From positions 113,933-177,932 of the forward strand of contig CAJXPQ010000007.1 of the NCBI GenBank assembly GCA_913058265.1: DNA of 64,000 bases. Direction: 5' to 3'. Shown here piece after piece: positions 2,771 through 22,815 of the stretch. This DNA comes from an uncultured Oligoflexia bacterium. Lineage in GTDB: Bacteria > Bdellovibrionota > Bacteriovoracia > Bacteriovoracales > Bacteriovoracaceae. A model generated the notes under the pieces. That model was not told the DNA's origin, ran no database searches, and worked only from the letters and a program-made list of their open reading frames with translations. The translations under genes and the position numbers were made by a program. Position 1 is the first letter of the stretch; every line of letters begins with the position of its first letter.

Positions 2771-3499
2771 CTAAAGAACTCTTACTTTTTCATCGAATAC
2801 ACCTGAAAGAATATCAAGTATGGGTTCATCTCTATTAATTTCTACAATTCTATTACTTTTATAATTTTGCAAAGCAAAACTACCATTATAGAGAATTAGG
2901 TTTAAATCTCTTAAAGGAATATACCAGTCGTAAAGAAAACCATCGACTTTATTTTGGTATCTAATCTTTACTGAGTAACTTGTTGGGTCATTGGAAAAGT
3001 ACCAATCTGCGAAGTGAGTCGTATTCATCGGAGTAATTTTATTAGATATTTGGTACTTTATAATAAATTCGCTATGCCGTGGAAGTGATGTAGGAATCTC
3101 TCCTACTGGAACACAGAAATGAGGAAAGCTATTTAAATAATTTAAAACATCTCCGTGAGATTCACAAACATATAGATAGATCTCATGCTCGTTTGAATAG
3201 TTTACAAGGTCTCTTAGCACTTTATTAAATACTTTTCCCTTGGGAAAATACAAATAGTAAGCATAAGCAAGTGGGAGCGATATTTCTCCTAGATCTGCAT
3301 GAATTAAATCTTCAGGCTTTTTTAGCATAGATTTAGAATGTAAAACTCTATCAGCGACAAACTCAATCCCAATACAGTTATTTTTCCCTAGTGCCTGAGA
3401 CAAGAAGACGCCTCTGCCATATCCGGCTCCCAAATCTACGAGAATCTCTCCATCAGGGATTTCCTCAAGCATATTCAAGTAATCCAGGTAAGAAGTCAT
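2771..3499 (-). CDS. Class I SAM-dependent methyltransferase-like protein with an unassigned C-terminal half
   Basis: LVDLGAGYGRG matches SAM-binding motif I near the N-terminus, followed by the acidic motif-II-like IGIEF. The C-terminal ~130 aa has no motif I recognise. Confidence 0.55.
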   Translation of the reverse strand: MTSYLDYLNMLEEIPDGEILVDLGAGYGRGVFLSQALGKNNCIGIEFVADRVLHSKSMLKKPEDLIHADLGEISLPLAYAYYLYFPKGKVFNKVLRDLVNYSNEHEIYLYVCESHGDVLNYLNSFPHFCVPVGEIPTSLPRHSEFIIKYQISNKITPMNTTHFADWYFSNDPTSYSVKIRYQNKVDGFLYDWYIPLRDLNLILYNGSFALQNYKSNRIVEINRDEPILDILSGVFDEKVRVL

Positions 3500-3563
3500 T
3501 AAGGCTTCTGATTCAAGCCCAATATAAGCATCGGAAGTGCCGCTTACGATTTTTTGTTCATTT

Positions 3564-3599
3564 AAATGAAAAGGGCCCAGAAAATTTTATCCAGGCCCT
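3564..3599 (-). terminator. Rho-independent terminator downstream of the sigma54 activator gene
   Basis: On the minus strand, AGGGCCUGGA-UAAAAUUU-UCUGGGCCCU forms a 10-bp stem (two G-U pairs) followed by UUUCAUUU. Confidence 0.6.
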
Positions 3600-3629
3600 T
3601 ATCCATTTCTATAATTAAATCTGTATTCA

Positions 3630-5171
3630 TTAAGTATGTAGAGACTTCTTCTTCATTTTTTCAATAAGAGTTGTCCTATTTAAATTTAAAAGCTTAGAAG
3701 CCTGATTCTTATTTCCTTCAGTAAAGCCTAGTGCTTGTAAAATCAAAGAGTCTTCGATATCAGACAAGACTTTCTTTAGGTCCACGCCATCTTTAGGTAG
3801 TTCAAAGATTTGCTTGTAATGGTCTGTCGCCAGAGGATTATGTCTATATATTTTAGCAGGAAGATCTTCTGGAAGAATTTCATTCCCTCCCCTTAAAATA
3901 ATTAATCTTTCAATAATATTTTCTAATTCTCGAACATTTCCTGGCCAGTCATAGTTAAGTAACATTTTTAGCGTTTCATTTGAAAAGCGAATCTCGTTTG
4001 AGCCGTCTGCTGATACAAAACGATTAACAAAATAAGAAAGTAATAAAGGTATATCTTCCTTTCTATCCTTAAGAGCAGGAATCTTGATAGGAATTACATT
4101 TAATCTATAATAAAGATCTTCTCTAAATGTATTCTCACTAACCATTAACTCAATATCTCTATGAGTAGCTGCAATGACTCTTGTATCAATATTTAATGTC
4201 TCATTAGACCCAATAGGCTCAATTGTTTTATTCTGTAGAACTCTTAAGAGTTTTACTTGTAAAAGTTGTGGCATGTCCCCAATTTCATCTAGAAAAATTG
4301 AACCGTTATTAGCTTGTTCAAATCTTCCTTTTCTATTGGATATGGCACCAGTAAAAGATCCTTTTGTATGACCAAAAAGTTCACTCTCTAAAAGCTCACC
4401 TGGGATTGCTCCACAATTAACCGAAACTTGATTAAATTTAGCTCTACTTGATAAATTGTGAATCGCGTTCGCAACCAACTCTTTTCCTGTCCCTGACGGG
4501 CCGGTAATAAAGACAGTTGACTCTGTTAAAGCGACTTTCTCGATACGCTCAAAGATATCCTTCATAGCTTGGGAGCGACCAATCATTCCACAAAAGAAAT
4601 CTTCTTCCTTTGGTGACTCTAGCCTTAGCTCTTTATTTTTACTTTTAGATGAGCCTGTCTTTGACTGTCTCATTTTGATCAAGCTTGTTTTAACTCCAAG
4701 CTTATTGCTAATCGCTTCAAGGACTAAGGTTTGCAAATTATCAAGCTCAAACGGTTTTGTTAGGTAGTGGTAAACACCTTTCTTAGTAGCAGCGATCGCC
4801 GTTTCAATTGAGGCAAATCCAGTCATTGCTATAGATACAAAATTAAATTTCTTTTCTTTTAAATTATCAATAAGAAGTAGCCCGTCTCCGCCGTGCTCTA
4901 GGCTTATATCTGTAATTAAACAGAAGGGTGACTTCACATTTGGCATATTTAATAAGTAGCTTAGACAATCCATCGAGTTCTCAAAGAGCTCGATTTCACA
5001 GTTAAGTGTTTTCATCAAATATTTCTTTAGGCTTAATCCGAAGATCTTATCATCTTCAACAATAATAATTTTGGGGTTCAGCCCAAAACCTTCTAATTCG
5101 TCATATTCACTTGACTCACTTCCTTTTGAATCTGGTTGGTATGACTGGTGTAAAAAGTTTAAATCATCCAT
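3630..5171 (-). CDS. Sigma54-dependent response regulator / transcriptional activator (NtrC family)
   Basis: There is an N-terminal receiver-like domain, then an AAA+ core with Walker A GPSGTGKE, the GAFTGA-loop variant ESELFGHTKGSFTGA and Walker B IFLDEIG. A C-terminal Fis-type HTH is present (NKNQASKLLNLNRTTLIEKMKK). Confidence 0.9.
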   Translation of the reverse strand: MDDLNFLHQSYQPDSKGSESSEYDELEGFGLNPKIIIVEDDKIFGLSLKKYLMKTLNCEIELFENSMDCLSYLLNMPNVKSPFCLITDISLEHGGDGLLLIDNLKEKKFNFVSIAMTGFASIETAIAATKKGVYHYLTKPFELDNLQTLVLEAISNKLGVKTSLIKMRQSKTGSSKSKNKELRLESPKEEDFFCGMIGRSQAMKDIFERIEKVALTESTVFITGPSGTGKELVANAIHNLSSRAKFNQVSVNCGAIPGELLESELFGHTKGSFTGAISNRKGRFEQANNGSIFLDEIGDMPQLLQVKLLRVLQNKTIEPIGSNETLNIDTRVIAATHRDIELMVSENTFREDLYYRLNVIPIKIPALKDRKEDIPLLLSYFVNRFVSADGSNEIRFSNETLKMLLNYDWPGNVRELENIIERLIILRGGNEILPEDLPAKIYRHNPLATDHYKQIFELPKDGVDLKKVLSDIEDSLILQALGFTEGNKNQASKLLNLNRTTLIEKMKKKSLHT

Positions 5172-5608: not shown

Positions 5609-6772
5609 TTAAAATCTAGATTTTAGCTCTTCAAGATAAGTTAGGTTCTCCCAAGTAAATCCATTTGTACTTGTTCTACCAAAATGACCGTATGCAGCTG
5701 TTTCAGCATAAATTGGTCTTAATAAGTCTAAGCGGTGAACAATCGCCTTAGGTCTCATATCAAAAATATCATTCACCGCTTGAGTGATTTTTGCATCATC
5801 AACTTTATTTGTTCCAAAAGTATCAACTAGGAATGACATAGGCTTTGAAACTCCGATTGCATAAGCAACCTGAACTAGTGCTCTGTCGGCTAGGCCTGCA
5901 GCAACAACGTGCTTTGCAACTTGTCTTGCAGCGTAAGCCGCCGATCTATCAACTTTTGATGGATCCTTTCCAGAGAATGCTCCACCACCGTGAGCACCAT
6001 GACCACCGTAAGTATCAACGATTATCTTTCTACCCGTAAGCCCTACATCACCCATCGGCCCACCGATGACAAATTTTCCAGTTGGGTTAATATAAATATT
6101 TGTGTCGTTATCAATTAGTTTCGGATCTACAATTTTATTAATTACTTCTTCACGAATTCCTTCCTGAAGCTGCTTCTGTGTAATATCTTCTGCATGTTGA
6201 GTTGAAACAACAATTGCATCTAAACGTGTGATAACCCCATCAACATACTGTGCTGAAACTTGCGTTTTACCATCAGCTCTTAGACCAGGAAGCACTTCCT
6301 TATGTCTTACTTCCGCAAGCTTCTGTGCAAGTTTGTGAGATAGATCAACTGTAAGTGGCATATGAGACTCTGTTTCATTTACAGCATAACCAAACATCAA
6401 TCCCTGATCACCAGCTCCTTGATCTAAATCAACACCCTCACCGACATTTACACCAGCTGCGATATCAACAGATTGTTTATCAAGGGAAACGTTTACACCA
6501 CATGTGTTTGCATCAAAACCCTTATCAGAGTGATCATAACCAATCTTACGAACGGTCTCACGAGCAATTTCATGGTAATCAATATTAGCACCGGTCGTAA
6601 TTTCGCCAGCAATCTGAATTAATCCAGTTGTAATGAGAGTTTCACATGCAACTCTAGAGTTAGGATCCTGCTTAAAAAGCGCATCTAAGATTGAATCTGA
6701 AATTTGATCTGCAATCTTATCTGGGTGTCCCTCGGTAACTGATTCTGATGTAAAAATATAGTCTTTAAGCAC
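5609..6772 (-). CDS. metK: S-adenosylmethionine synthetase
   Basis: MetK signatures [25 protein letters not shown] and [19 protein letters not shown] are present. The track start at 6784 is TTG. The GTG at 6772 lies 6 nt after GGAG and gives the usual N-terminal length. Confidence 0.95.
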
Positions 6773-6847
6773 GTTTAACTCCAATCAATATAAATAAATA
6801 ATACACTAGTGTGAATTTATACACTTTTATGCAAAGTTTAACAATTA

Positions 6848-8539
6848 TTATTTCTTAGAAAAATAAGCAAAAAGATGAGGGTTTCGATAATCAAAAAAGA
6901 CCGGTTTGCCTTTAATCCAACGCATTGAATAGGTCTTACCCTTAACTCTTACAACTGTGTATTCAAGCTTTCGAGCATCTAAAAAAGAATACAAGTACTG
7001 GTACTTGTCTGAAAGGTAGTACCTGGCCAGTTTACGTTGTCCTATAGACTCAAACCCCACCATTTCTGGCAGGCGAACGTAGTCAGTCCATACGGTCGAC
7101 ATATCAATTTTTCCAAGCATTGAAACTCGCGAGAAGTATCTAAATGCATTAAATGAGTTATTATGATTTTTCATCGCCTTAAGAGATAATTTAAGGTTAT
7201 CAGAACGTATTGATTTACCTCGAGGACTCATGTCGGGGCAAAATGTTTTAACGACAGCAGGTATATAATGATAAGTGAAAGAAAATTCTCCAATTTTAAA
7301 AAGTACGTTTAGCCATTTTTCTTTCGCTTTATCTACATCCTTAGAAATATAGTCATAAATCATTTGATCTTTTTCAAGTTCACTATAAAACTTGTCTTCA
7401 TAGCGGTTTAAAACTACCTCTGCAACACTTGTTCGCTCCAATCCAAACTTGCCATCAAGAACACCAACTTCATTAACTAAAATGGTTTCAAGACTAAACA
7501 GCGCCTTATGTAACTCGGACTTCTTCGCCCAAAAGTCATATACTTCTGCTTGTTTTTTATAAACGTATTCTTTCAATTTTTGAGAAGACTCATTTTCTTT
7601 TTTGACCAAGAAACGAGATTTATTTTTATTTTTAGTTTTGATAATTTCTTTATAAAATTCATAGTTGTTTTGAGTCCGATCTCTCCACTCTTCTAATCTT
7701 TGAATCTGAACTGCTCTTCCTCTATCAACAAGTCTCTCTAATCCACGTTCAATCCAGTCGAGATCATAGCGAACATTTTCAGAGATAAAATCTTTTTCCT
7801 TATGAATAGATAAGTAGAGAGTATCCAAAGTCGTTCGCAAATATTTATCAGGGCGAGTATGATTTTTATCATAAGCTCCATCCTCTAAGATTCTTCGTAA
7901 GAAAAAAGTATCGTTTGCCTTCCTCTTATTATATTCACCTTCCTTATCCTTGAAAGATTCATATTTTCTTCTATGTGCTAAATAATCGTTTGGAAAATTA
8001 TAACTTTTCAAGAAGAAGACTTGCTTCATAAATAAATCAAAATGCTTCTTTAGTCGAACCAACTCTTGATTAGATTCCACCATAATCTCTTTCTGCTTAT
8101 CTGCTCTGATTGATTGATGGTATTTCTTCTTTAATGATAAGAGGCGCTGAACAATCTTATCCAGCTCCACGTATAAAAGAGAAAAACGTGGATATTCTTT
8201 TTGTGACTTTAGCTTTGTAATTGTTCTTTCAATATAATTAATCTTTTTCCTAAAATGGTGAAGATTATTAATGATTGCTTTTCGATCAATATCATCCCCA
8301 AGTTTTGGTAAGTAAAATCCCTTTCCTCTATAGGCCCTCAAGAGCTTATAATACTCAGCTTCGACACCTGGGCGACACGAATTTTTAAAAAATTGACGAT
8401 GAACCTTCTCAAAGTCTTTAATCACTTTATAGATATTACCAGACCACTTAAGATGATCGTTATTCTTAGACTCTGCCTTTGCATGAACACTAAAAGCAAA
8501 AAAACTTATTAATAAAAGTTTAAGAAAGTTCAGTGACAA
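6848..8539 (-). CDS. Secreted protein; the C-terminal region (aa ~350-480) may be a SleB/CwlJ-like cell-wall hydrolase domain
   Basis: The signal peptide is MSLNFLKLLLISFFAFSVHA. The stretch NEVGVLDGKFGLERTSVAEVVLNRYED...FKIGEFSF resembles the Hydrolase_2 pattern (E...G...VA.VVLNR...QFS). Its start overlaps the mpl stop by 20 nt. Confidence 0.55.
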   Translation of the reverse strand: MSLNFLKLLLISFFAFSVHAKAESKNNDHLKWSGNIYKVIKDFEKVHRQFFKNSCRPGVEAEYYKLLRAYRGKGFYLPKLGDDIDRKAIINNLHHFRKKINYIERTITKLKSQKEYPRFSLLYVELDKIVQRLLSLKKKYHQSIRADKQKEIMVESNQELVRLKKHFDLFMKQVFFLKSYNFPNDYLAHRRKYESFKDKEGEYNKRKANDTFFLRRILEDGAYDKNHTRPDKYLRTTLDTLYLSIHKEKDFISENVRYDLDWIERGLERLVDRGRAVQIQRLEEWRDRTQNNYEFYKEIIKTKNKNKSRFLVKKENESSQKLKEYVYKKQAEVYDFWAKKSELHKALFSLETILVNEVGVLDGKFGLERTSVAEVVLNRYEDKFYSELEKDQMIYDYISKDVDKAKEKWLNVLFKIGEFSFTYHYIPAVVKTFCPDMSPRGKSIRSDNLKLSLKAMKNHNNSFNAFRYFSRVSMLGKIDMSTVWTDYVRLPEMVGFESIGQRKLARYYLSDKYQYLYSFLDARKLEYTVVRVKGKTYSMRWIKGKPVFFDYRNPHLFAYFSKK

Positions 8540-10884: not shown

Positions 10885-11823
10885 TTAAATAGATTTATTC
10901 CAGATATACTGACCTAATTCTCTACGAAATTCATTTAAACGCTCTTTATGAAACCAAGACTTCTTCGTAGAGTTTGTTAAAATGATATGCCCAAGACCGC
11001 TACCTGGATCAATCCAAAAGGATGTTCCAGTAAAGCCAAGGTGGCCAAAGGTTTTCGTTGAACAACCTGCACCTGCTAATGTATTTATTGGATCCTCGAC
11101 AGTATCAAATCCATTAAAGAATCTTTGAGTCGTTTCAATATTCATTTTTTTCAGCAGGTCGTGCTTCTTCTGAAAATTTAAGAGTGTATTGCCCACAGAT
11201 TCGATGGTTCCAAACAATCCTGCATGTGAAGTGTAGCAATTTAAATTATAGGCATTAGGGTCATGGACTTTACCGATATTTGGCTTAAGGCGATAGAAGC
11301 CATTTTGGATACAAGTTTCACTACCGTTTAAATCTGTCCAAAATTTTAAATTTTCATCTAAGTTTTTAGAAACTAGAGATTTATAAGACTCACCAGTTTT
11401 CTTTTCAACTTCAAGCATAAATCTTAAGGCCGAAAAATCAGAGTATAATGTTGCTGAATCTTTTATATTATAGCTTAGGATTTGTTCTTTCCATCCATGC
11501 TTAGGAAGAAGTCCCCAAGCAGGTATACCGGCGCGATGATTTAGAAGTAAATCTAAATCCTTATCATCAAATTTTTCATTTAAATAAACCAATGAATTCA
11601 TAAGTGGCTTAGTAAGACTAGCAAGATCAAAGTAAACCATAGATTTCTCTTCTAAGCATTGGTCTTTATAAATTTCTATAAAGGTATGCTTGTCACTTTT
11701 GAAGTCTAATACTCCAATCGCAACTGCGTCTATATCTATACCAGATTCCTTATAATAATTTCTCGTCAGTTCTTTAATCTTATCCATGCTTGATTGCTGA
11801 TTGAGCCGCTGCAAGTCTTGCAA
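10885..11823 (-). CDS. Serine hydrolase, beta-lactamase / PBP-like family
   Basis: It carries the SxxK motif ASLTKP and the C-terminal motif GHLGFTGTSFWIDP. An alternative ATG at 11787 (MDKIKEL) would cut the overlap with ppdK from 44 nt to 8 nt. Confidence 0.7.
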   Translation of the reverse strand: MQDLQRLNQQSSMDKIKELTRNYYKESGIDIDAVAIGVLDFKSDKHTFIEIYKDQCLEEKSMVYFDLASLTKPLMNSLVYLNEKFDDKDLDLLLNHRAGIPAWGLLPKHGWKEQILSYNIKDSATLYSDFSALRFMLEVEKKTGESYKSLVSKNLDENLKFWTDLNGSETCIQNGFYRLKPNIGKVHDPNAYNLNCYTSHAGLFGTIESVGNTLLNFQKKHDLLKKMNIETTQRFFNGFDTVEDPINTLAGAGCSTKTFGHLGFTGTSFWIDPGSGLGHIILTNSTKKSWFHKERLNEFRRELGQYIWNKSI

Positions 11824-15816: not shown

Positions 15817-16566
15817 TTAATCTAAATTATTAAATCCGCGGTATAGATCACTTATTTCAGAAGAAGATAGTGTTCGATTCCAAATTCCGAAGCTATCAAG
15901 ATTTCCATCTAATGGTGAGGCCCACCCGACAGTAGTACATAGAGTAAAAGTCGAATCATTTAAGTTACTACCTGTTGTATTAAATACAGTACTTCCTTGT
16001 TGTGAACCATTAACGAACGCTGTAACCCCTGTGTTTCTGTCTAAATTGAATACAACATGTTGCCATGATCCGGAACCTATAGTGGCTACATGAGTATTAC
16101 CATTAACCCAGAATGTAATACCTGATGATCCATCCAATGTAATATTAAATCCGCTTGAAAAGTCCGCAATATGGCTGCCACCAATATCCGAGGTAACATA
16201 AATCCAAAAACCAATCGCGAAGTTATTACCGGGAGCTGTACCAAAATTCATATTATTTGATGAATTCAGTGAAAAGCGGTTACTACCACTTAGATTACAA
16301 TCTATGGCATTTCCATTGATCCCTCCAGTCGAATTTATCGAGCCTTGATTATAAATAAGGTTATTGCTTCCTTGAATATCACTTCGATCTTGAGTTGATC
16401 CGCTTTCATCAAAGCGCCAAAAAGAAACGAGACCGTTCCATAATTCTTCATTATATTGACCGGCACCAAACCTATCATCCAAATCGGTTTCTCCATCTGT
16501 AATTGCTTTCAGTGCATTACATGAGACGAGTGTTGATAGTAAAAAAAGTAATCCTAACTTTTTCAT
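15817..16566 (-). CDS. LamG/concanavalin-like domain lipoprotein
   Basis: It has a lipobox (LVSC) and the WRFDESGS...D.SGSNN pattern typical of LamG-fold proteins. Its ATG overlaps the upstream ABC exporter stop as ATGA. Confidence 0.55.
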   Translation of the reverse strand: MKKLGLLFLLSTLVSCNALKAITDGETDLDDRFGAGQYNEELWNGLVSFWRFDESGSTQDRSDIQGSNNLIYNQGSINSTGGINGNAIDCNLSGSNRFSLNSSNNMNFGTAPGNNFAIGFWIYVTSDIGGSHIADFSSGFNITLDGSSGITFWVNGNTHVATIGSGSWQHVVFNLDRNTGVTAFVNGSQQGSTVFNTTGSNLNDSTFTLCTTVGWASPLDGNLDSFGIWNRTLSSSEISDLYRGFNNLD

Positions 16567-18281
16567 TGGCTCTCCATTTGAGTTAACTCATATAGTTTTT
16601 TATATTCATTCTTATTTGCAATAAGTTCTGCATGTTTTCCAGATTCAATCATGACTCCATCCTTCATCACAATAATTCGATCATAGTTTTGGATGGTTGA
16701 AAGTCTATGGGCGACAGCAATAACTGTTTTATGACTTGCCACTTGATCTAAGGCTTTCTGAACAACTTTCTCTGACTCATTATCAAGAGCACTGGTTGCT
16801 TCATCAAAAAGTAGTACCGGACAGTTTCTTAAGAAGGCCCTAGCAATAGTTAATCTTTGGCTTTGACCACCAGATAGTCTCGTTCCCCTATCACCGATAT
16901 GAGTGTTAAGTCCCTCTGGTAAATTTTGAATAAATTCATCTGCATAACTCACTTCAAGAGCATGCTTAATCTGTTCATCACTATATTCAAATCCAGCTTT
17001 TAAGTTCTCTTTTACCGTATCATTAAATAAAAATATATCTTGGGATACGAGAGCAAAAACATTTCGAATAGATTCAAGCTCATAGTCTTTAATATTGATG
17101 CCATCAATCAGGATTTCACCCTGTTCAATATCGTATAATCTAAGAAGTAGTGAAATTAAGGTCGACTTACCAGAGCCAGAAAGACCAACCAGTGCAACCT
17201 TATCGCCTTTCGAAATCTTTAAACTAAAATTCTTAATGACATCACTATTTCCGTAGGAGAAGGTTACGTCCAGAAACTCTATAGAGTCTTTAAACTCAGT
17301 AAACTTTGTTTTTCCAAGATTCACTTCTTCAGGCTCATCTAAAAGATGAAATATTCTATCTGCTGCGGCCCTTGCTTGGTTAAGTTTTGTATTCGCTTTT
17401 GAAAAACGTCTCACTGGATCCATAAACATAGCAAGTGCTGTAACAAATGAAATAAACTCTCCAGATGTTAAGCCTCCATCTCTTTGTCTATACCAAGCCA
17501 TGACAATAACTGTTGCAAAAGCAAATGCTCCAACAGTTTCAACCAGTGGATGTGAGTGCTCCTCTGCGGAGTTACTTTTCTTTTTATGTTTTAAGAACAA
17601 ATTTTGAGCGACTTCAAATCTCTTCGTCATATAATCTTGAAGATTAAAGGCTTTAATAATTTTTTGTCCTACTAACCCTTCTGCTGCATGATGAGTCATG
17701 TCTGCAGTATCTGCTTGTGATCTTGCAATATACCTTCTAATTCTTTTTCCTGTAACGCTAAAGATTACCAAGAAAAATGGAAGTACTATAAAGATAACAA
17801 GAGTTAATTTCCAATCGTGATAAAGAGCTACTGATAAAAGTAAGGCTGCCGTAATAGGTTCTCTGATAATATCTAGACCATGCATAAAAGCTTCTGCAAA
17901 AATTGCAGTGTCATTAATCATTACTGATAATAAATTTCCTTGTTTGGCTTTTGAATAATATGTTGCTGAGAGATTTTGAAATTTTTTATAAATAGCTTTT
18001 CTAATATCGCAAGTGGCCCTATCCACAACCATCCTCATTCCAAAGAAATGAATAAACCTAAAAGGGTAATTAACTAGCGCCAAACCAATTAAAATTCCTG
18101 CCAATTGAAATGCGTATTGTTCTGTTGAAGTAGGATCAAAGATCCCATCTATAACATTTTTTATAAAGTAGGCCTGATAAGCTTTTATCGCCGCAAGTGG
18201 TAGCGCACAGACAGTCGCTAAAATTGCTAATTTCATATAGGGCCGTATAAATGGAAGCATTTGCTTGATCAGTTGAAACAT
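16563..18281 (-). CDS. ABC exporter, fused permease/ATPase (MsbA-like)
   Basis: A six-TM exporter domain is fused to an NBD with Walker A GLSGSGKST, signature LSGGQSQR and Walker B LLFDEATSALD. Confidence 0.85.
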   Translation of the reverse strand: MFQLIKQMLPFIRPYMKLAILATVCALPLAAIKAYQAYFIKNVIDGIFDPTSTEQYAFQLAGILIGLALVNYPFRFIHFFGMRMVVDRATCDIRKAIYKKFQNLSATYYSKAKQGNLLSVMINDTAIFAEAFMHGLDIIREPITAALLLSVALYHDWKLTLVIFIVLPFFLVIFSVTGKRIRRYIARSQADTADMTHHAAEGLVGQKIIKAFNLQDYMTKRFEVAQNLFLKHKKKSNSAEEHSHPLVETVGAFAFATVIVMAWYRQRDGGLTSGEFISFVTALAMFMDPVRRFSKANTKLNQARAAADRIFHLLDEPEEVNLGKTKFTEFKDSIEFLDVTFSYGNSDVIKNFSLKISKGDKVALVGLSGSGKSTLISLLLRLYDIEQGEILIDGINIKDYELESIRNVFALVSQDIFLFNDTVKENLKAGFEYSDEQIKHALEVSYADEFIQNLPEGLNTHIGDRGTRLSGGQSQRLTIARAFLRNCPVLLFDEATSALDNESEKVVQKALDQVASHKTVIAVAHRLSTIQNYDRIIVMKDGVMIESGKHAELIANKNEYKKLYELTQMESQ

Positions 18282-18340: not shown

Positions 18341-18413
18341 AAAAGCACACCTATTGACTCGTAGTGCCAGTTATTATTTAATAAAGTTAATTTTTAAAAA
18401 TATAAAGGTAACT

Positions 18414-18890
18414 ATGAGCTCTAAAGCAATTTTCTTTGATCGAGATGACACTCTTATCCATGATTCAAATTACATGTATAAAATTGAGCAACTGAACTTC
18501 ATTGATGGTGTTTTCAAGACTTTAAAGGAATTACAAGACAGGAACTATCTCCTATTTATTGTCACAAACCAATCTGGAATTGGACGTGGCTATTTTGAAG
18601 AGAAAGATATGCATAATTTTAATAATCATATGCTAGGGAAACTTCTTGAGCAGGGAATTAAAATAACTGATATCGCTTTTTGCCCACATGCTCCGGAAGA
18701 TAATTGTGAGTGTAGAAAGCCTAGTCCTAAAATGCTGAATGACCTTTGTAAAAAATATGACATAGACAAGTCTCAGAGTTATATGGTCGGAGATAAAAAC
18801 TCCGATATCAAGTCTGGTGAGAAGGCCGGTTTAAAAACGTTCAAAGTTTTAGGTGAAAAATCAATTAGAGAAATACTCAATCAGCTTTAA
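18414..18890 (+). CDS. gmhB: D-glycero-beta-D-manno-heptose-1,7-bisphosphate 7-phosphatase (HAD-IIIA)
   Basis: HAD-IIIA motifs FFDRDDTLI, VTNQSGIGRGYF and GDKNSD are present, along with the Zn-loop CPHAPEDNCECRKP. I prefer the ATG at 18414 over the TTG at 18354. Confidence 0.8.
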   Translation: MSSKAIFFDRDDTLIHDSNYMYKIEQLNFIDGVFKTLKELQDRNYLLFIVTNQSGIGRGYFEEKDMHNFNNHMLGKLLEQGIKITDIAFCPHAPEDNCECRKPSPKMLNDLCKKYDIDKSQSYMVGDKNSDIKSGEKAGLKTFKVLGEKSIREILNQL

Positions 18891-19323
18891 CAAAAATTGA
18901 TTCATTTATTTCTATATCATCGCTGCCGATTACTGACTCAAACTCTTGAGGACAGTTTTCTATTATGAACTTCACTATGTGCCTTGCAAACCAAAATTCT
19001 ATTTTCTCATCTTCATTCCAGCCAATTTTTTTTATCTCTTTTCCAATTTGATAAGCCTCATTAGGACTCCAAGTACACTGAATCAATTCCTCAAGCTCAA
19101 CTTCATCAATACGATTCTGATCCGAGAAAAGTTTAACAGAATCTACGATATTAAAAGTTAGCATAGAACTTTCTCCATTCCCTCCACCAAGAATCCATCG
19201 CCCCTTCCTTACCTCGATGTCAGATAGAATAACATCCTCAAGAACTTCATAAACAAAATAAAGCTTACCTGAAAGGTTACATTGTGCTCTGGGAATATGC
19301 TTTGTTGAGTCTATCTCTGACAT
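18877..19323 (-). CDS. Acidic cytoplasmic protein, hypothetical (immunity-protein candidate)
   Basis: This 148-aa protein has no signal peptide. By my count it has about 29 D/E versus 15 K/R. Its ATG shares a base with the upstream TAA (TAATG), and its 3' end overlaps convergent gmhB by 14 nt. Confidence 0.55.
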   Translation of the reverse strand: MSEIDSTKHIPRAQCNLSGKLYFVYEVLEDVILSDIEVRKGRWILGGGNGESSMLTFNIVDSVKLFSDQNRIDEVELEELIQCTWSPNEAYQIGKEIKKIGWNEDEKIEFWFARHIVKFIIENCPQEFESVIGSDDIEINESIFVKAD

Positions 19324-19751
19324 TATTTATTTTTAATTATTCGATTATATTGTGGCTTCGTTATGATACCCTCTTTTAGCATCTGTCTCAAGACACTCGT
19401 TGGGACTTTCTCCTTAACAACATCAACTGCTACATAGGAATGCCAACCGCCTTGCCCATCTGGCTGGAAAACAACAACTTTATCATCTTCAAAGTTATAT
19501 CTCTGTTTTTTATTCTTTCCAATATAAGATGAGTCTAACAATTCTTGTCCTCTATTTTGATTTTCTATAGGATTCTTACTTCCCCAACCGCCTTGTTCAT
19601 GCTTTCTAGAAGGTGAGTATGAGCCAATATTTCCCTGGGCTTCCATTCTCGATAAGCGTATCTCTGCTTGTTCAGGTGAAATACAGTTTTTTGCATGAAT
19701 CTCTCCAACGAATAAAAGTATGAAAAGTATAAAGCTATTTACAATGTACAT
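19323..19751 (-). CDS. Small Sec-exported basic protein, hypothetical (toxin/enzyme candidate)
   Basis: The signal peptide is MYIVNSFILFILLFVGEIHA. The mature part is ~120 aa and net basic, with two GGW motifs (HEQGGWGS and PDGQGGWHSY). It overlaps the upstream ORF by 13 nt. Confidence 0.55.
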   Translation of the reverse strand: MYIVNSFILFILLFVGEIHAKNCISPEQAEIRLSRMEAQGNIGSYSPSRKHEQGGWGSKNPIENQNRGQELLDSSYIGKNKKQRYNFEDDKVVVFQPDGQGGWHSYVAVDVVKEKVPTSVLRQMLKEGIITKPQYNRIIKNK

Positions 19752-20431
19752 ACTAGCCCTAACGTTTTTCTGACTTGATCACTCTTACCTCTTCGAATCA
19801 GATTTAATATCGAGTTCAAACCATTTTGAGAGAATTTACTAATCATTGAAATTGGTAAGTATGCATATGAAGCCAACCTCCCCAGTAAACCTAGTTTACT
19901 AACAATGGCCGCTACCGTTTGAGCTACTTTTCCAGCTCCTGCTCCGCCTGTAAGTACCGCAATTAAAACTGCCATCCCTACGCCCCCAATGATCGTGCAA
20001 ATTAGTTCAGATAATGCTTCCGCTGGTAATGCACTCAACAGATCTGATATCTCAGAAATTTTAGTGGTTATATTAGAGAAAAACTTAACTGTATTATCAA
20101 AACCTTCTTTTGCCTTCATTGCACATTCAATAGGTGACCATAAGCACTTGCCAACACTTGTAATAGCTCCACCAGAACTGGCCCAAGCACCTTTAAAAAT
20201 GCCTTTAACACATCCCCATGCTCCTCGCATTAATCCAGTAAGTGCAATAGTTGAAGTTCCCACAGGTTTAGGCGGAAGATTAATACTTCTCTCACAGCTA
20301 ACGTCTCCACTTATAACAGAAGTTCCCACTTCGAAATTAGCATTGCTGGCGTTTAACTTTGAACTCGGCAGTGTTAAGAACAGTAGATTAAAAGTTAAAA
20401 ATAATGATAAGAATCTGGCAATATTACTCAC
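19739..20431 (-). CDS. Sec-exported Gly/Ala-rich protein with a long hydrophobic segment, hypothetical
   Basis: It has a GTG start and a signal-peptide-like N-terminus, with Cys-containing Gly-rich repeats (GAWGCVKGIFKGAWASSGG). A ~40-aa uncharged stretch reads LICTIIGGVGMAVLIAVLTGGAGAGKVAQTVAAIV. Confidence 0.5.
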   Translation of the reverse strand: MSNIARFLSLFLTFNLLFLTLPSSKLNASNANFEVGTSVISGDVSCERSINLPPKPVGTSTIALTGLMRGAWGCVKGIFKGAWASSGGAITSVGKCLWSPIECAMKAKEGFDNTVKFFSNITTKISEISDLLSALPAEALSELICTIIGGVGMAVLIAVLTGGAGAGKVAQTVAAIVSKLGLLGRLASYAYLPISMISKFSQNGLNSILNLIRRGKSDQVRKTLGLVCTL

Positions 20432-20437
20432 CTATAT

Positions 20438-20466
20438 ATTGTAGATGAAAATATTATCTGGCTCAA
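20438..20466 (-). promoter_or_regulatory. Candidate sigma70 promoter of the three-gene cassette
   Basis: The minus strand reads TTGAGC (20466-20461), a 17-nt spacer, then TACAAT (20443-20438). The predicted start site falls at or next to the GTG at 20431, so the mRNA may be leaderless or have a very short leader. Confidence 0.4.
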
Positions 20467-20480
20467 TTAGGAAAAATCCT

Positions 20481-20954
20481 CTACCTGACTGAAATACTTT
20501 CAATCGTTTTAAGTATAGTTTTTTTATGTTTCTTAAATTCAACTTGTTTACTTTGAAACAGAATGTAATGGTATTGGCTTTTGTTAAGCTTAATGCACGT
20601 AAGCAGGCTGTATTTCATTGGGTTGAGGTATTCATTATAAGTACACTTAATATTCTGCTTTAAATTCATCTTGTCTAAAACTTTAAAGTCAGTGTATTTC
20701 TTTCCAAAATTTTTATTATCCTTAGTTAGAAACTCAAAAATATCTATTTTTGATAAATCTTTTTTATAAGTGAAGAATAATATCGAATTAGGGTTGCGAT
20801 TATGAATTACTTTTTCATGAACAATAGCATCTGTACCATACATTTTTTCACTAAAAGTCCACCCTTCAGGTACTGTTAGACTGTAGTAATTGCCCGAAAA
20901 AGCGATTACAGATGAAGGAAGCAATAATATCAAAAGAAGTATCTTATAATTCAT
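20481..20954 (-). CDS. Secreted protein, hypothetical (possibly PsbP/DUF1795-like fold)
   Basis: A signal peptide is followed by the early motif LTVPEGWTF. The family assignment is weak. Confidence 0.45.
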   Translation of the reverse strand: MNYKILLLILLLPSSVIAFSGNYYSLTVPEGWTFSEKMYGTDAIVHEKVIHNRNPNSILFFTYKKDLSKIDIFEFLTKDNKNFGKKYTDFKVLDKMNLKQNIKCTYNEYLNPMKYSLLTCIKLNKSQYHYILFQSKQVEFKKHKKTILKTIESISVR

Positions 20955-20966
20955 TATTTATTCTCG

Positions 20967-21788
20967 CTAAATATTGATCATCTTCCAAGTATTAAATTGA
21001 TCAGGTGTAAATCCAAGTTGATAATTAATATATTGAAACTCTGCTGCTGTTAACCCCTGAGTCATACCAGATAGAAGAGCATAATCTTTAAAAGGCAAAT
21101 GAAGAGCATTTTTTAAAGTTCGTCGTAAAAGTACTGAGTTTTGGTATTCATATTGAAGTGTTACATTTTCAGATACCGTCTCTCCTTGTTTTGACAGACA
21201 GTCGGCACAAATAAAGCCTCCATTCTGAGCATCAAAGGCAAACATATTTTGCTTCTCAAGGTCGGTGGCACAAAATAAGCAACTATCTGTATCAGGGTTA
21301 ATTCCTAACTGAACGGTGAGTTTAGATAAGAACATAAATAATTGAACATGAAGATTGAACTCCCCCTTACTTACAGAGCTATCTAAATAAAATAAAGCAT
21401 TACTTAAGACATTAAATAATCCTTCGTGGTCTGTAGCATGGACATCATCAATATTCTCACTGATGGCAATCTTACCTAAGTACTCAAAATAAAAAGTTGA
21501 AAGGTAGAAAGCTTGAAAGTCATCTCTAATTTTACGAGATGCCCAGATTAAATTATATTCTTTTGCAATTTGAACTTCGGTTTCTAGTTTCTTTTTTCGT
21601 GGTGCCAAAGTCACTGTAACCATAGCGCCTAAATCAAGAATAGATCCCTTTTGGCTTTTTCCGCCTCCCTGACCTCCATAGAAATAAACACTGAGTGTTT
21701 TTCCTGAACGCAGTAAGAGATTACAGATGAGATCTCTTTCTTTGTAGGGTGTTTTATGAATAACAATACCTTCAATATTCATATGCAT
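20967..21788 (-). CDS. recO: DNA repair protein RecO
   Basis: The N-terminal OB-fold pattern EGIVIHKTPYKERDLI and the C-terminal Cys4 pattern CLFCATD...FICADC are both present. Confidence 0.85.
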   Translation of the reverse strand: MHMNIEGIVIHKTPYKERDLICNLLLRSGKTLSVYFYGGQGGGKSQKGSILDLGAMVTVTLAPRKKKLETEVQIAKEYNLIWASRKIRDDFQAFYLSTFYFEYLGKIAISENIDDVHATDHEGLFNVLSNALFYLDSSVSKGEFNLHVQLFMFLSKLTVQLGINPDTDSCLFCATDLEKQNMFAFDAQNGGFICADCLSKQGETVSENVTLQYEYQNSVLLRRTLKNALHLPFKDYALLSGMTQGLTAAEFQYINYQLGFTPDQFNTWKMINI

Positions 21789-22815
21789 AATATAGTAGTT
21801 TATTTATCTTATTGCGAAGTCTTTTTACCATTACACTGCCAGTCCCTATAAATACCTGTAATTTTGAAAAATACGTATTTGATAAAGTATGAACTTCAAA
21901 GCTCTCCCCCTGTCTTCCTCCCCGTCCTATCATCTGAATATAGAAATCAAGATTTTGAACATTATAATTAAATATAATTTTCGATATATTTGGCAGATTT
22001 ACACCGTGACTAACAACGCTTGTGGCAACAATAAAATCCACATTCTCTGTGGAGTTTAACTTCAGAATAAAACTCGAAGCTTCACCACCAACACAATTTA
22101 GAACACAAAAACCCCGGTCTCTTAGTTTTTGACTAAGTTCTTTAACTTCACGTCTAAACTTGCAAAAAATTAAAGTACAACCAGGGTTTATGCCATATAA
22201 AACTTCATCATCGATCCATGAGCGAAGAAGCTTAGGGTAGTAAAAGATTCTCTTTGGATAATTTTTTAACTTTTGGTTGCCAAAATCGAGATGATATATG
22301 TTTTTATAATTGTACTTTAACTCTAACTCAAGGCGATGCTTAAGCTCATCACCTAAAGTTGCAGTTAAAAATACAATCGGAGCGCCAAATGAGGTCACTT
22401 CAAAATATAAGGCCTGCATTTTGTCTCGAAAAGAGTTTCCCCAGTAATAAAATAAGTGAAACTCATCTAGCACATAGATATATCCACTCAACTCCTTATT
22501 CAAAAGGATTTCTGGGGTACTTAATATTAACTTATAATCACGTATTTTTAAGAGTTCCAAATCTTTGGAGGATCGCAAGTTCAAGCAATCAATTCTAAAT
22601 TCTTGCGAACTCAAAAAGACTTCATCGCATAGTGCCCTTAGTGGAAAAATAAAGATGACTGATCGACTACACTCTTTAATTGCTTGTAGTATTTTATAGG
22701 TCTTTCCCCATCCGGGGGGCGCTGTAACTATAACAGCATCCTCAAAAGATAAATTTTCAATCACTTCTTTCATAATACTCAATCTTGCAAAGGTATCTGT
22801 AAAAAACCTAATCAT
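21772..22815 (-). CDS. RecQ-family SF2 helicase core only (no Zn/RQC/HRDC modules)
   Basis: SF2 motifs are I APPGWGKT, Ia FPLRALCDE, II LDEFHLFYYWGNSFR (RecQ-type DExH..WG..FR), III LTAT, V VATSVVSHGVNLP and VI QMIGRGGRQG. The protein is only 347 aa, and its stop overlaps recO by 17 nt. Confidence 0.75.
   Translation of the reverse strand: MIRFFTDTFARLSIMKEVIENLSFEDAVIVTAPPGWGKTYKILQAIKECSRSVIFIFPLRALCDEVFLSSQEFRIDCLNLRSSKDLELLKIRDYKLILSTPEILLNKELSGYIYVLDEFHLFYYWGNSFRDKMQALYFEVTSFGAPIVFLTATLGDELKHRLELELKYNYKNIYHLDFGNQKLKNYPKRIFYYPKLLRSWIDDEVLYGINPGCTLIFCKFRREVKELSQKLRDRGFCVLNCVGGEASSFILKLNSTENVDFIVATSVVSHGVNLPNISKIIFNYNVQNLDFYIQMIGRGGRQGESFEVHTLSNTYFSKLQVFIGTGSVMVKRLRNKINKLLYYAYEY

Follow-up and report, generated by a model that had tools for sequence, protein, structure and literature searches.

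A candidate stripped-down toxin–immunity module of the polymorphic-toxin kind in an uncultured marine Oligoflexia bacterium

Three adjacent minus-strand genes in an uncultured Oligoflexia bacterium probably form a stripped-down chromosomal toxin–immunity module of the polymorphic-toxin type. The genes, here called ORF1, ORF2 and ORF3, lie in the window, by which we mean the whole 64,000-nucleotide stretch of DNA that was analysed (Table 1). In the reading we prefer, ORF2 would be a minimal toxin, its toxin domain of about 100 residues preceded only by a Sec signal peptide and a short linker, and would kill by cutting RNA in the cytoplasm of a target cell as a metal-independent RNase of the Barnase/EndoU/Colicin/RelE (BECR) class. 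ORF3 would bind and block any toxin in the producer's own cytoplasm. ORF1 would be an exported, disulfide-capable and membrane-associated protein, and the most economical guess is that it helps to release, anchor or deliver the toxin.

Table 1. Features of the locus and of two comparison loci; coordinates are those of the window unless another locus is named
Feature	Position	Strand	Description
ORF1	19739..20431	minus	230 aa, GTG start; predicted exported membrane-associated protein, family not assigned
ORF1 predicted Sec signal peptide	20339..20431	minus	about residues 1-31 (ending ...LNASNA, before NFEV); hydropathy peak at residues 4-22, sequence-level call
ORF1 uncharged Gly/Ala-rich segment	19901..20020	minus	residues 138-177 (40 residues); KD19 maximum 2.49
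ORF2	19323..19751	minus	142 aa; predicted signal peptide, linker of ~22 aa and toxin domain
ORF2 predicted signal peptide	19692..19751	minus	residues 1-20 (ending ...EIHA, before KN); from hydropathy; pLDDT about 51
ORF2 toxin domain	19326..19625	minus	residues 43-142; uncurated polymorphic-toxin / NsnC C-terminal family; K50, H51, Q83, F95-Q96-P97-D98, W103-H104-x-Y106 and Y135 all present
ORF3	18877..19323	minus	148 aa, acidic, without signal peptide; candidate cognate immunity protein
p157	20481..20954	minus	157-aa exported protein 5' of the trio; weakly PsbP-like (Pfam PsbP E 0.0096, under cut-off)
Sigma-70-like promoter candidate	20438..20466	minus	TTGAGC-17 nt-TACAAT; 9/12 matches
ORF3 homologue	L075 10627-11115		directly 3' of the same toxin domain (Oligoflexia MAG)
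ORF3 homologue	L076 6770-7261		directly 3' of the same toxin domain (Oligoflexia MAG)

The three genes are tightly packed: ORF1 runs 13 nt into ORF2, a TAATG combines the stop of ORF2 with the start of ORF3, and ORF3 converges on gmhB with an overlap of 14 nt (18877-18890), a spacer of 49 nt (20432-20480) lying 5' of ORF1. The gene coordinates and overlaps given in the initial annotation were all reproduced. The neighbouring genes are recO, p157, gmhB and msbA. The start of p157 lies 12 nt past recO, and the gene is kept (dN/dS 0.157) in L062, a relative with 87% nucleotide identity; it is doubtful that it forms part of the module. The G+C content of the trio (0.35-0.40) resembles that of its surroundings, and a search of the locus for marks of mobile elements found neither a tRNA nor any meaningful flanking repeat. 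A RecO-based synteny scan of GTDB genomes returned no match. ORF1, ORF2 and ORF3 are all real genes and not chance open reading frames, because ORF2 has relatives, ORF3 has homologues and ORF1 has a telling pattern of codon changes, each described below. Word-index protein searches, in which all three genes appeared to be orphans, were misleading, since an exhaustive phmmer search gave 210 relatives of ORF2.

The initial annotation had also placed a promoter in front of ORF1 and regarded the three genes as an autonomous unit on that ground. The candidate site is present as described; the autonomy of the unit is not established by it, since promoter-like sites in the region occur at the level of chance (11 observed, against 11.5 +/- 3.2 in shuffles, hence no enrichment). 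Both hexamers are identical in L062, the spacer between them differing at 6 of 17 bases, which supports the site weakly (chance probability about 0.16). With the end of the -10 hexamer 6 nt from the GTG codon of ORF1, the predicted transcript would be leaderless or nearly so. This GTG is the only in-frame ORF1 start kept in L062, where the ATT at codon 4 of the window is replaced by ATA. Terminator prediction gave none on the minus strand, and read-through into the trio from recO-p157 is possible.

Of the 210 relatives of ORF2, 108 were found at E<=1e-10, and the size of the family, counted as clusters at 50% identity, is at least 210. In all of these relatives the part that aligns with ORF2 residues ~40-142 is the extreme C-terminus; the relatives are 68-3113 aa long and bear the N-terminal architectures TPS with Fil_haemagg_2 (CdiA-like), RHS repeats with PT-TG, PT-HINT, WXG100, and PrsW. 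The domain is thus found at the C-terminus behind many different N-termini, as expected of polymorphic toxins, and by homology it is a bona fide polymorphic-toxin C-terminal domain. It is absent from Pfam and NCBIfam, in keeping with the earlier description of an unassigned family; that description nevertheless needs amending, as the large family is already contained within the NsnC models of PADLOC. The NsnC model PDLC03898 matches ORF2 (E 2.9e-12) over model positions 179-261 of 263 only, and is matched by 35 of 37 family members; five further NsnC models match 13-16 members each, and the comparison of the toxin domain with the C-terminus of the PADLOC NsnC models gives a best E of 4e-27. 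A tblastn search of plasmids with the domain found no match.

Family-wide, H104 and Y106 are invariant and K50, H51, L72, Q83, F95, Q96, P97, I130 and Y135 are conserved at 90% or more, all of them being present in ORF2; R/K122 is conserved across the family as well. Two GGW motifs, noticed earlier in ORF2 by itself, prove to be conserved family-wide and adjoin the nearly invariant H51 and the invariant H104. The AF2 model of ORF2 (pLDDT 85.6, above 90 over the toxin domain) comprises a helix at residues 65-73, strands at 84-88, 91-97 and 102-107, and two C-terminal helices, the three strands comparing with four in the BECR core. When this model was searched with Foldseek, a check that the initial annotation had proposed, the best match was indeed a toxin: the four CdiA-CT toxin chains (E-H) of 5T87 head the PDB list, at modest scores (probability 0.51-0.97, E 0.09 to 0.83, target-normalised TM 0.57-0.66; the best match has probability 0.97, E 0.09 and TM 0.62-0.66). 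Toxins of the RelE/ParE/HigB type are found among unrelated folds in the weak tail of the Foldseek results (probability 0.05-0.23). A fold search of BFVD returned nothing, and a sequence search of the PDB with the toxin profile gave no link to any solved RNase. The invariant His/His/Lys/Tyr set is intact in ORF2, and the domain is therefore probably a BECR-type RNase, an activity deduced from the modelled fold together with the conserved residues. Li et al. 2025 (PMC12065111) classed most NsnC C-termini as BECR RNases and describe an H-R-H triad for the prevalent one, PB-BECR1.

The N-terminus of ORF2 resembles a hydrophobic, cleavable signal peptide, and the protein is predicted to be exported. 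Its n-region has no basic residue; in L062 the signal-peptide stretch carries 11 conservative hydrophobic substitutions and keeps the cleavage site, (V/I)-x-A followed by KNC. As judged from hydropathy and the comparison with L062, the only candidate secretion or trafficking module found in ORF2 is this signal-peptide-like N-terminus. The mature protein is basic (20 K/R vs 14 D/E, pI 9.5) and ORF3 is acidic (15 K/R vs 29 D/E, pI 4.5), the charges agreeing with the first counts. Taken together, the family architectures, the AF2 fold, the conserved residues and this N-terminus favour the original proposal that ORF2 is a secreted toxin and possibly a nuclease. As a periplasmic protein of 122 residues, ORF2 would still need a route out of a Gram-negative cell and into a target, which counts against the reading preferred here.

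In essentially all loci inspected the toxin domain is followed by an immunity-type gene, which at about 60 other loci belongs to a common family of ~170-230 aa with the motifs WG.F.LWV, FPLP, FDSDDDDEFD.W, HSW and IEI.WDN. ORF3 scores 0.5 bits against the HMM of this common family and reaches a probability of 0.3% or less in hhalign, also when a five-member-lineage ORF3 profile is used, and no member of the common family is present elsewhere in the window. A 45-residue local resemblance (phmmer E ~0.01, about 5,000 fragments) had suggested that ORF3 might be a diverged member; because it is lost in profile-profile comparison, this was rejected. Against the reading preferred here, the ORF2 toxin domain resembles the Oligoflexia versions less (45% identity) than those accompanied by the common immunity family (up to 57%).

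Homologues of ORF3 were recovered at pairwise E values of 3e-16, 8e-13 and 4e-17. The first two values belong to the homologues in two Oligoflexia MAGs (full-length identity 28% and 27%), which lie directly after toxins (1870-aa and 582-aa PT-HINT) with two different N-termini. A point against the immunity role is that other homologues stand alone in marine Bacteroidota in a non-toxin context. A Chondrinema homologue of ORF3 is the only match for ORF1 or ORF3 in plasmids, phages and viral contigs. Since the ORF3 homologues follow the same toxin behind two different N-termini and are unrelated to the common family, they appear to constitute a second, unnamed immunity family. That two other lineages keep the gene in this position behind the same toxin, together with the TAATG coupling, supports ORF3 as the cognate immunity protein, and it is the comparative position in the two Oligoflexia loci that speaks for the earlier suggestion of ORF3 as the inhibitor of ORF2. 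Sequence and profile searches of Pfam and the PDB with ORF3 found no match, nor was any signature of a DNA-binding or antitoxin family detected; its structural model has a pLDDT of 43.9, and the Foldseek hits of that model are meaningless.

ORF1 is under strong purifying selection. Between the window and L062 its codons show 68 synonymous vs 17 non-synonymous changes (dN/dS 0.052), and dN/dS is 0.016 over residues 106-229. The uncharged segment differs by a single change, V173I; with small-xxx-small periodicity from residues 150 to 174, it could form either a transmembrane helix or a hairpin. With 6 Cys, a Gly+Ala content of 20% and this 40-residue segment, ORF1 fits its initial description as Gly/Ala-rich and Cys-containing with a long uncharged stretch. 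It has nothing better than E 0.05 in Pfam, NCBIfam, PADLOC and PHROGs, a limit that holds for the pore-forming colicin and glycine-zipper families as well, and the word-index searches, which also missed the 210 relatives of ORF2, found no relative beyond L062; plasmids, phages and viral contigs contain no match. A relation of ORF1 to PT-TG or a pre-toxin region was considered and rejected, there being no HMM similarity and the weak matches being no better than shuffles (5/100 score as well). ORF1 may be an accessory or delivery partner of the toxin. The expectation that the trio would be kept as a unit in relatives failed outside the close lineage: in Oligoflexia the pair of ORF2 domain and ORF3 family is found without ORF1, and in marine Bacteroidota the ORF3 homologues occur by themselves.

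Several known systems resemble parts of this locus. The polymorphic toxin systems comprise CdiA-CT/CdiI, Rhs-CT/RhsI, PT-HINT and LXG/WXG100 toxins (Zhang et al. 2012, PMC3482391); ORF2 residues 43-142 are homologous to their C-terminal warhead, and a small immunity-type gene is directly next to it. Unlike them, ORF2 has a signal peptide in place of any N-terminal trafficking, repeat or pre-toxin domain, and the locus has the rarer second immunity family and an extra upstream partner gene. ORF2 is identical in two other strain assemblies (L002 and L003, mutually identical here), where ORF3 differs by one residue, so that among the three strains there is no warhead polymorphism and no variation of warhead and immunity behind a constant N-terminus; ORF2 has no constant N-terminal region to speak of. 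By HMM, ORF2 has the same domain as the Menshen effector NsnC, and its conserved His / Arg-or-Lys / His pattern agrees with the H-R-H triad described for PB-BECR1 (PMC12065111); judging from the prevalence of PB-BECR1, the ORF2 domain is probably this one. By contrast with NsnC, which is cytoplasmic, ORF2 is predicted to be exported and lacks inPIN, its residues 1-42 being taken up by signal peptide and linker; no NsnA or NsnB is found among the neighbours, and ORF1 has no DUF262 or ATPase match. Among solved folds, the ORF2 model comes closest to the CdiA-CT/CdiI complex of Cupriavidus taiwanensis (5T87), although that complex has no similarity to ORF2 at the sequence level, and no reported activity of its toxin was found in the literature searched. 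Barnase/barstar offers a similar layout, a small basic Sec-exported RNase with an acidic cytoplasmic inhibitor encoded nearby, and the BECR superfamily would include both toxins; it differs in having no detectable sequence or family relation, and the present locus adds translational coupling and a third gene. In the mafA-mafB-mafI cassettes of Neisseria and the sitB-sitA-sitI cassettes of Myxococcus, the order is exported accessory, Sec-exported polymorphic toxin and cytoplasmic immunity. The order of ORF1-ORF2-ORF3 would be the same, a likeness of organisation only, since neither ORF1 nor ORF2 has a lipobox. We know of no homology of ORF1 to MafA or SitB, and of no DUF1020 or SitA N-terminal region in ORF2.

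The same facts can be read differently. ORF2 and ORF3 might be a secreted housekeeping or feeding RNase and its intracellular inhibitor, following the logic of barnase/barstar, for scavenging or for digesting prey or extracellular RNA, and ORF1 an unrelated co-transcribed envelope protein. Such a role would suit an ORF2 free of delivery, receptor-binding or repeat domains, a location amid housekeeping genes, a native G+C content, the lack of mobile-element marks, and the near identity of both proteins in the two other strain assemblies, which is unlike the polymorphism typical of competition toxins. We consider it unlikely, however, because every other architecture of the domain is that of a conflict system (CDI, RHS, PT-HINT, WXG100 or Menshen), and the extreme constraint on ORF1 together with its overlap with ORF2 argues that ORF1 belongs with the pair.

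Two further readings seem much less probable. The trio could be a larger polymorphic toxin that has split or decayed on its way to loss, ORF1 deriving from the N-terminal or pre-toxin part and ORF2 from the C-terminal warhead: a Gly/Ala-rich hydrophobic segment is often found just ahead of the toxin domain in fused relatives, weak ORF1 alignments sit exactly at the pre-toxin position in three relatives, and loci of this sort commonly contain orphan toxin fragments (for example, L075 11587-11814). This is improbable given that the pre-toxin resemblance does not exceed composition and ORF1 is not PT-TG; moreover, ORF1 has a dN/dS of 0.05, and in ORF2 a separate hydrophobic N-terminus is conserved and the predicted catalytic residues are intact, so that both genes appear to be maintained. 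There is only a very slight chance that ORF2 acts inside the cell, as a defence or abortive-infection effector like NsnC or as a type II toxin–antitoxin, with its N-terminus serving as a membrane anchor. The domain common to NsnC effectors, the RelE/ParE-like folds in the weak Foldseek tail and the tightly coupled toxin-then-inhibitor order are compatible with this idea, against which stand the lack of an adjacent ParB-DUF262 (NsnA) or ABC-ATPase (NsnB) gene and of an inPIN domain, the AxA-type cleavage site kept in L062, and an ORF3 devoid of DNA-binding or antitoxin-family signatures.

If the locus is a stripped-down toxin–immunity module, as we propose, three "hypothetical" genes gain a name and a testable function. 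A large toxin family outside Pfam and NCBIfam links interbacterial toxins with Menshen anti-phage effectors, and two uncurated immunity families are defined for its toxin domain, one common and one rare; the rare ORF3 type has so far turned up in this marine bacterium and next to the toxin in Oligoflexia, and as stand-alone genes in marine Bacteroidota. A warhead made of a signal peptide plus a domain, behind an extremely constrained ORF1, would offer a small, tractable system for the exit of a toxin from a Gram-negative producer and its entry into the target. A bolder idea, which we hold with little confidence, is that ORF1 is a dedicated membrane-inserting translocator or release factor that together with the minimal Sec-exported RNase makes up a binary, AB-like antibacterial weapon guarded by the new immunity family; if true, the ORF1-ORF2 pair would represent a delivery route absent from the current catalogue of polymorphic-toxin trafficking modes.

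The trio of minus-strand genes ORF1, ORF2 and ORF3 lies exactly where the initial annotation placed it, and the charges, cysteines and GGW motifs reported there were borne out on recounting, as was ORF1's uncharged stretch of 40 residues. A 13-nt overlap joins ORF1 to ORF2 and a TAATG stop/start joins ORF2 to ORF3, which in turn overlaps the convergent gmhB gene by 14 nt. A marine-metagenome scaffold in ENA is identical to the window, and gene order is the same in two further assemblies of ~98.9% identity to it. The G+C content of the trio is that of its surroundings, no tRNAs or meaningful flanking repeats were found around it, and Pfam and NCBIfam recognize none of the three proteins.

Features of the window and of comparison loci (window coordinates unless a locus is named)
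Feature	Coordinates	Strand	Remarks
Laminin_G_3 protein	15817-16566	minus	249 aa
MsbA-like ABC exporter	16563-18281	minus	
gmhB-like HAD phosphatase ORF	18354-18890	plus	TTG start
ORF3	18877-19323	minus	148 aa
ORF2	19323-19751	minus	142 aa
GGW repeat copies	19443-19459, 19584-19600		17-nt direct repeat
ORF1	19739-20431	minus	230 aa, GTG start
p157	20481-20954	minus	157 aa, exported; start 12 nt past recO
recO	20967-21788	minus	
DEAD/Helicase_C-type gene	21772-22815	minus	347 aa
L005, common immunity family member	6312-6941		
L075 (Oligoflexia MAG), orphan toxin-domain fragment	11587-11814		E 3.7e-16
L076 (Oligoflexia MAG), second PT-HINT toxin	2821-4253		

Exhaustive phmmer searching identified 210 relatives of ORF2 (108 at E<=1e-10), with up to 57% identity, all missed by a word-index protein search that returned only ORF2 itself. 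In every relative, the match to ORF2 residues ~40-142 is at the extreme C-terminus of a protein of 68-3113 aa, preceded by such diverse parts as TPS domains and haemagglutinin repeats (CdiA-like), RHS repeats then PT-TG, PT-HINT, WXG100, or PrsW; NCBI names follow these N-terminal parts only, or are "hypothetical". The earlier reading of ORF2 was thus right: judged by its relatives and their architectures, it carries a C-terminal warhead of the polymorphic toxins (residues 43-142, hereafter the toxin domain). H104 and Y106 are invariant in the domain, and K50, H51, L72, Q83, F95, Q96, P97, I130 and Y135, each at least 90% conserved, are all kept in ORF2. Both GGW motifs are family-wide and adjoin the two conserved histidines. 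In the DNA these motifs (HEQGGW and DGQGGW) form a direct repeat, 88% identical, with one copy adjoining the nearly invariant H51 and the other the invariant H104, hinting at an internally repeated active-site element.

No sequence-related solved structure was found for ORF2 in the PDB. AF2, given 37 family members, yields a confident model (pLDDT 85.6, and >90 across the toxin domain) with only three strands, and the Foldseek comparison that the initial annotation had suggested places on top the four toxin chains of 5T87, the CdiA-CT/CdiI complex of Cupriavidus taiwanensis, which are nearest to ORF2 by fold and not by sequence (probability up to 0.97 and target-normalised TM 0.62-0.66, with a weak E of 0.09). 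RelE/ParE/HigB-type toxins appear lower in the list, among unrelated folds, at probabilities of only 0.05-0.23. The toxin domain also matches the C-terminal part of PADLOC models for NsnC, which is the Menshen anti-phage effector (ORF2 E 2.9e-12): PDLC03898 is matched by 35 of the 37 family members, and five other NsnC models by 13-16 members each. Most NsnC C-termini have been classed as BECR-fold RNases, the prevalent domain being PB-BECR1, with an H-R-H triad (Li et al. 2025, PMC12065111); the conserved H51, R/K122 and H104 of the ORF2 family fit the triad described. From the 5T87 fold match, the NsnC match and this fit, we infer a BECR-type RNase, probably PB-BECR1 itself or a close relative, the likeness to PB-BECR1 being one of description.

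In most other loci the toxin domain is followed by a different protein from ORF3. Among 57 fetched genome and metagenome loci, mostly from Bacillota and also from Gammaproteobacteria, Treponema, Segatella and Slackia, 55 have immediately after the domain a member of one ~170-230-aa family, the two exceptions having no room there or being truncated; six further loci agree. This family, present in ~60 loci of several phyla (L004-L060, L077-L084) and marked by the motifs WG.F.LWV, FPLP, FDSDDDDEFD.W, HSW and IEI.WDN, has no Pfam match and so appears to be an uncurated immunity family. ORF3 does not belong to it: the family's HMM gives it 0.5 bits and hhalign a probability of <=0.3%, and no gene of the family occurs in the window. 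ORF3 has no relatives that we could find in Pfam or PDB, and its predicted model (pLDDT 43.9) is too uncertain to give a fold. One of its groups of relatives is found in marine Bacteroidota, also on a Chondrinema litorale plasmid; these genes stand alone, in DinB-like/SDR/AraC surroundings with no toxin nearby. (The contig L067, from GCA_002729595.1, is labelled as a Thalassobius sp. MAG; it carries SusC/SusD genes and a protein that shares a 90%-identity cluster with one from the C. litorale (Bacteroidota) plasmid, so that the alphaproteobacterial label looks like a binning error.)

In two Oligoflexia MAGs, the toxin domain is succeeded at once by a gene for a full-length homologue of ORF3, behind a 1870-aa signal-peptide-bearing toxin in L075 (pairwise E 3e-16) and a 582-aa PT-HINT protein in L076 (8e-13); all begin MSEID..H. 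Since the same toxin domain is thus trailed by an ORF3-type protein behind three unrelated N-termini, guilt by association supports ORF3 as a candidate cognate immunity protein, in line with the inhibitor role first proposed for it. The warheads of ORF2 and the two Oligoflexia toxins have several changes in common: one residue is missing after K-H, one is inserted before the conserved VP (as also in one toxin paired with the common immunity family), position 84 is Arg, and the consensus Glu at 115 is lost. These changes are compatible with a different immunity interface. Both Oligoflexia loci look like typical polymorphic-toxin loci: past the immunity gene, L075 has an orphaned C-terminal piece of the same toxin domain, and just upstream in L076 is a second toxin, whose warhead differs and which is followed by a 163-aa gene of its own.

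The initial annotation asked whether the trio is conserved as a unit; outside the close lineage it is not. TARA Oceans contigs of 87% nucleotide identity keep the arrangement p157-ORF1-start of ORF2, and ORF1 there differs by 68 synonymous and 17 non-synonymous codon changes (dN/dS 0.052, and 0.016 over residues 106-229), which marks it as a real and important gene. ORF1 has a signal-peptide-like N-terminus, a predicted exported part with four cysteines, and a basic tail; its uncharged segment is Gly/Ala-rich with small-xxx-small periodicity. Gly/Ala-rich hydrophobic segments often stand just before the warhead in fused toxin relatives, and weak ORF1 alignments land there, with scores no better than those of shuffled sequence; ORF1 is not PT-TG either, and no relatives were found by any route tried, so a helper role is only a guess. 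Its orphan status is itself provisional, as it rests on the word-index search that missed all ORF2 relatives. The upstream neighbour p157, also kept in the TARA relative, is less constrained than ORF1 (dN/dS 0.157 versus 0.052) and has a near full-length, sub-threshold PsbP-like match (E 0.0096).

The region holds 11 promoter-like sites, counting the one upstream of the trio, where 11.5 would be expected. At the trio's site the 87% relative has the same two hexamers but differs at 6 of the 17 spacer bases, an outcome with a chance of about one in six. The GTG, the sole in-frame ORF1 start conserved there, is 6 nt past the -10 hexamer, so that the mRNA would be leaderless if the site fires. As no terminator is predicted, the trio may also be transcribed by read-through from recO-p157.

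Among the neighbouring genes, the helicase gene overlaps the recO start by 17 nt, which suggests a coupled pair. The exporter and Laminin_G_3 genes overlap by 4 nt, and the latter's protein has a weak Toxin_R_bind_N match in a sister strain; this coupling of an exporter with a LamG-fold protein could repay a closer look. The TTG start of the gmhB ORF comes from a mechanical ORF list; gene callers prefer ATG 18414 (158 aa), and the 20 N-terminal residues that the TTG start adds are probably untranslated.

Read from sequence comparison, the trio is probably a minimal toxin-immunity module of the polymorphic-toxin kind, with predicted Sec-dependent export. The kind of system is already known, and so, very probably, is the toxin fold. 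What is new is the signal-peptide-only toxin architecture, rare in a family where a few relatives have just an N-terminal hydrophobic segment and linker before the domain, together with a family of ORF3-type immunity proteins and the conserved partner gene ORF1.
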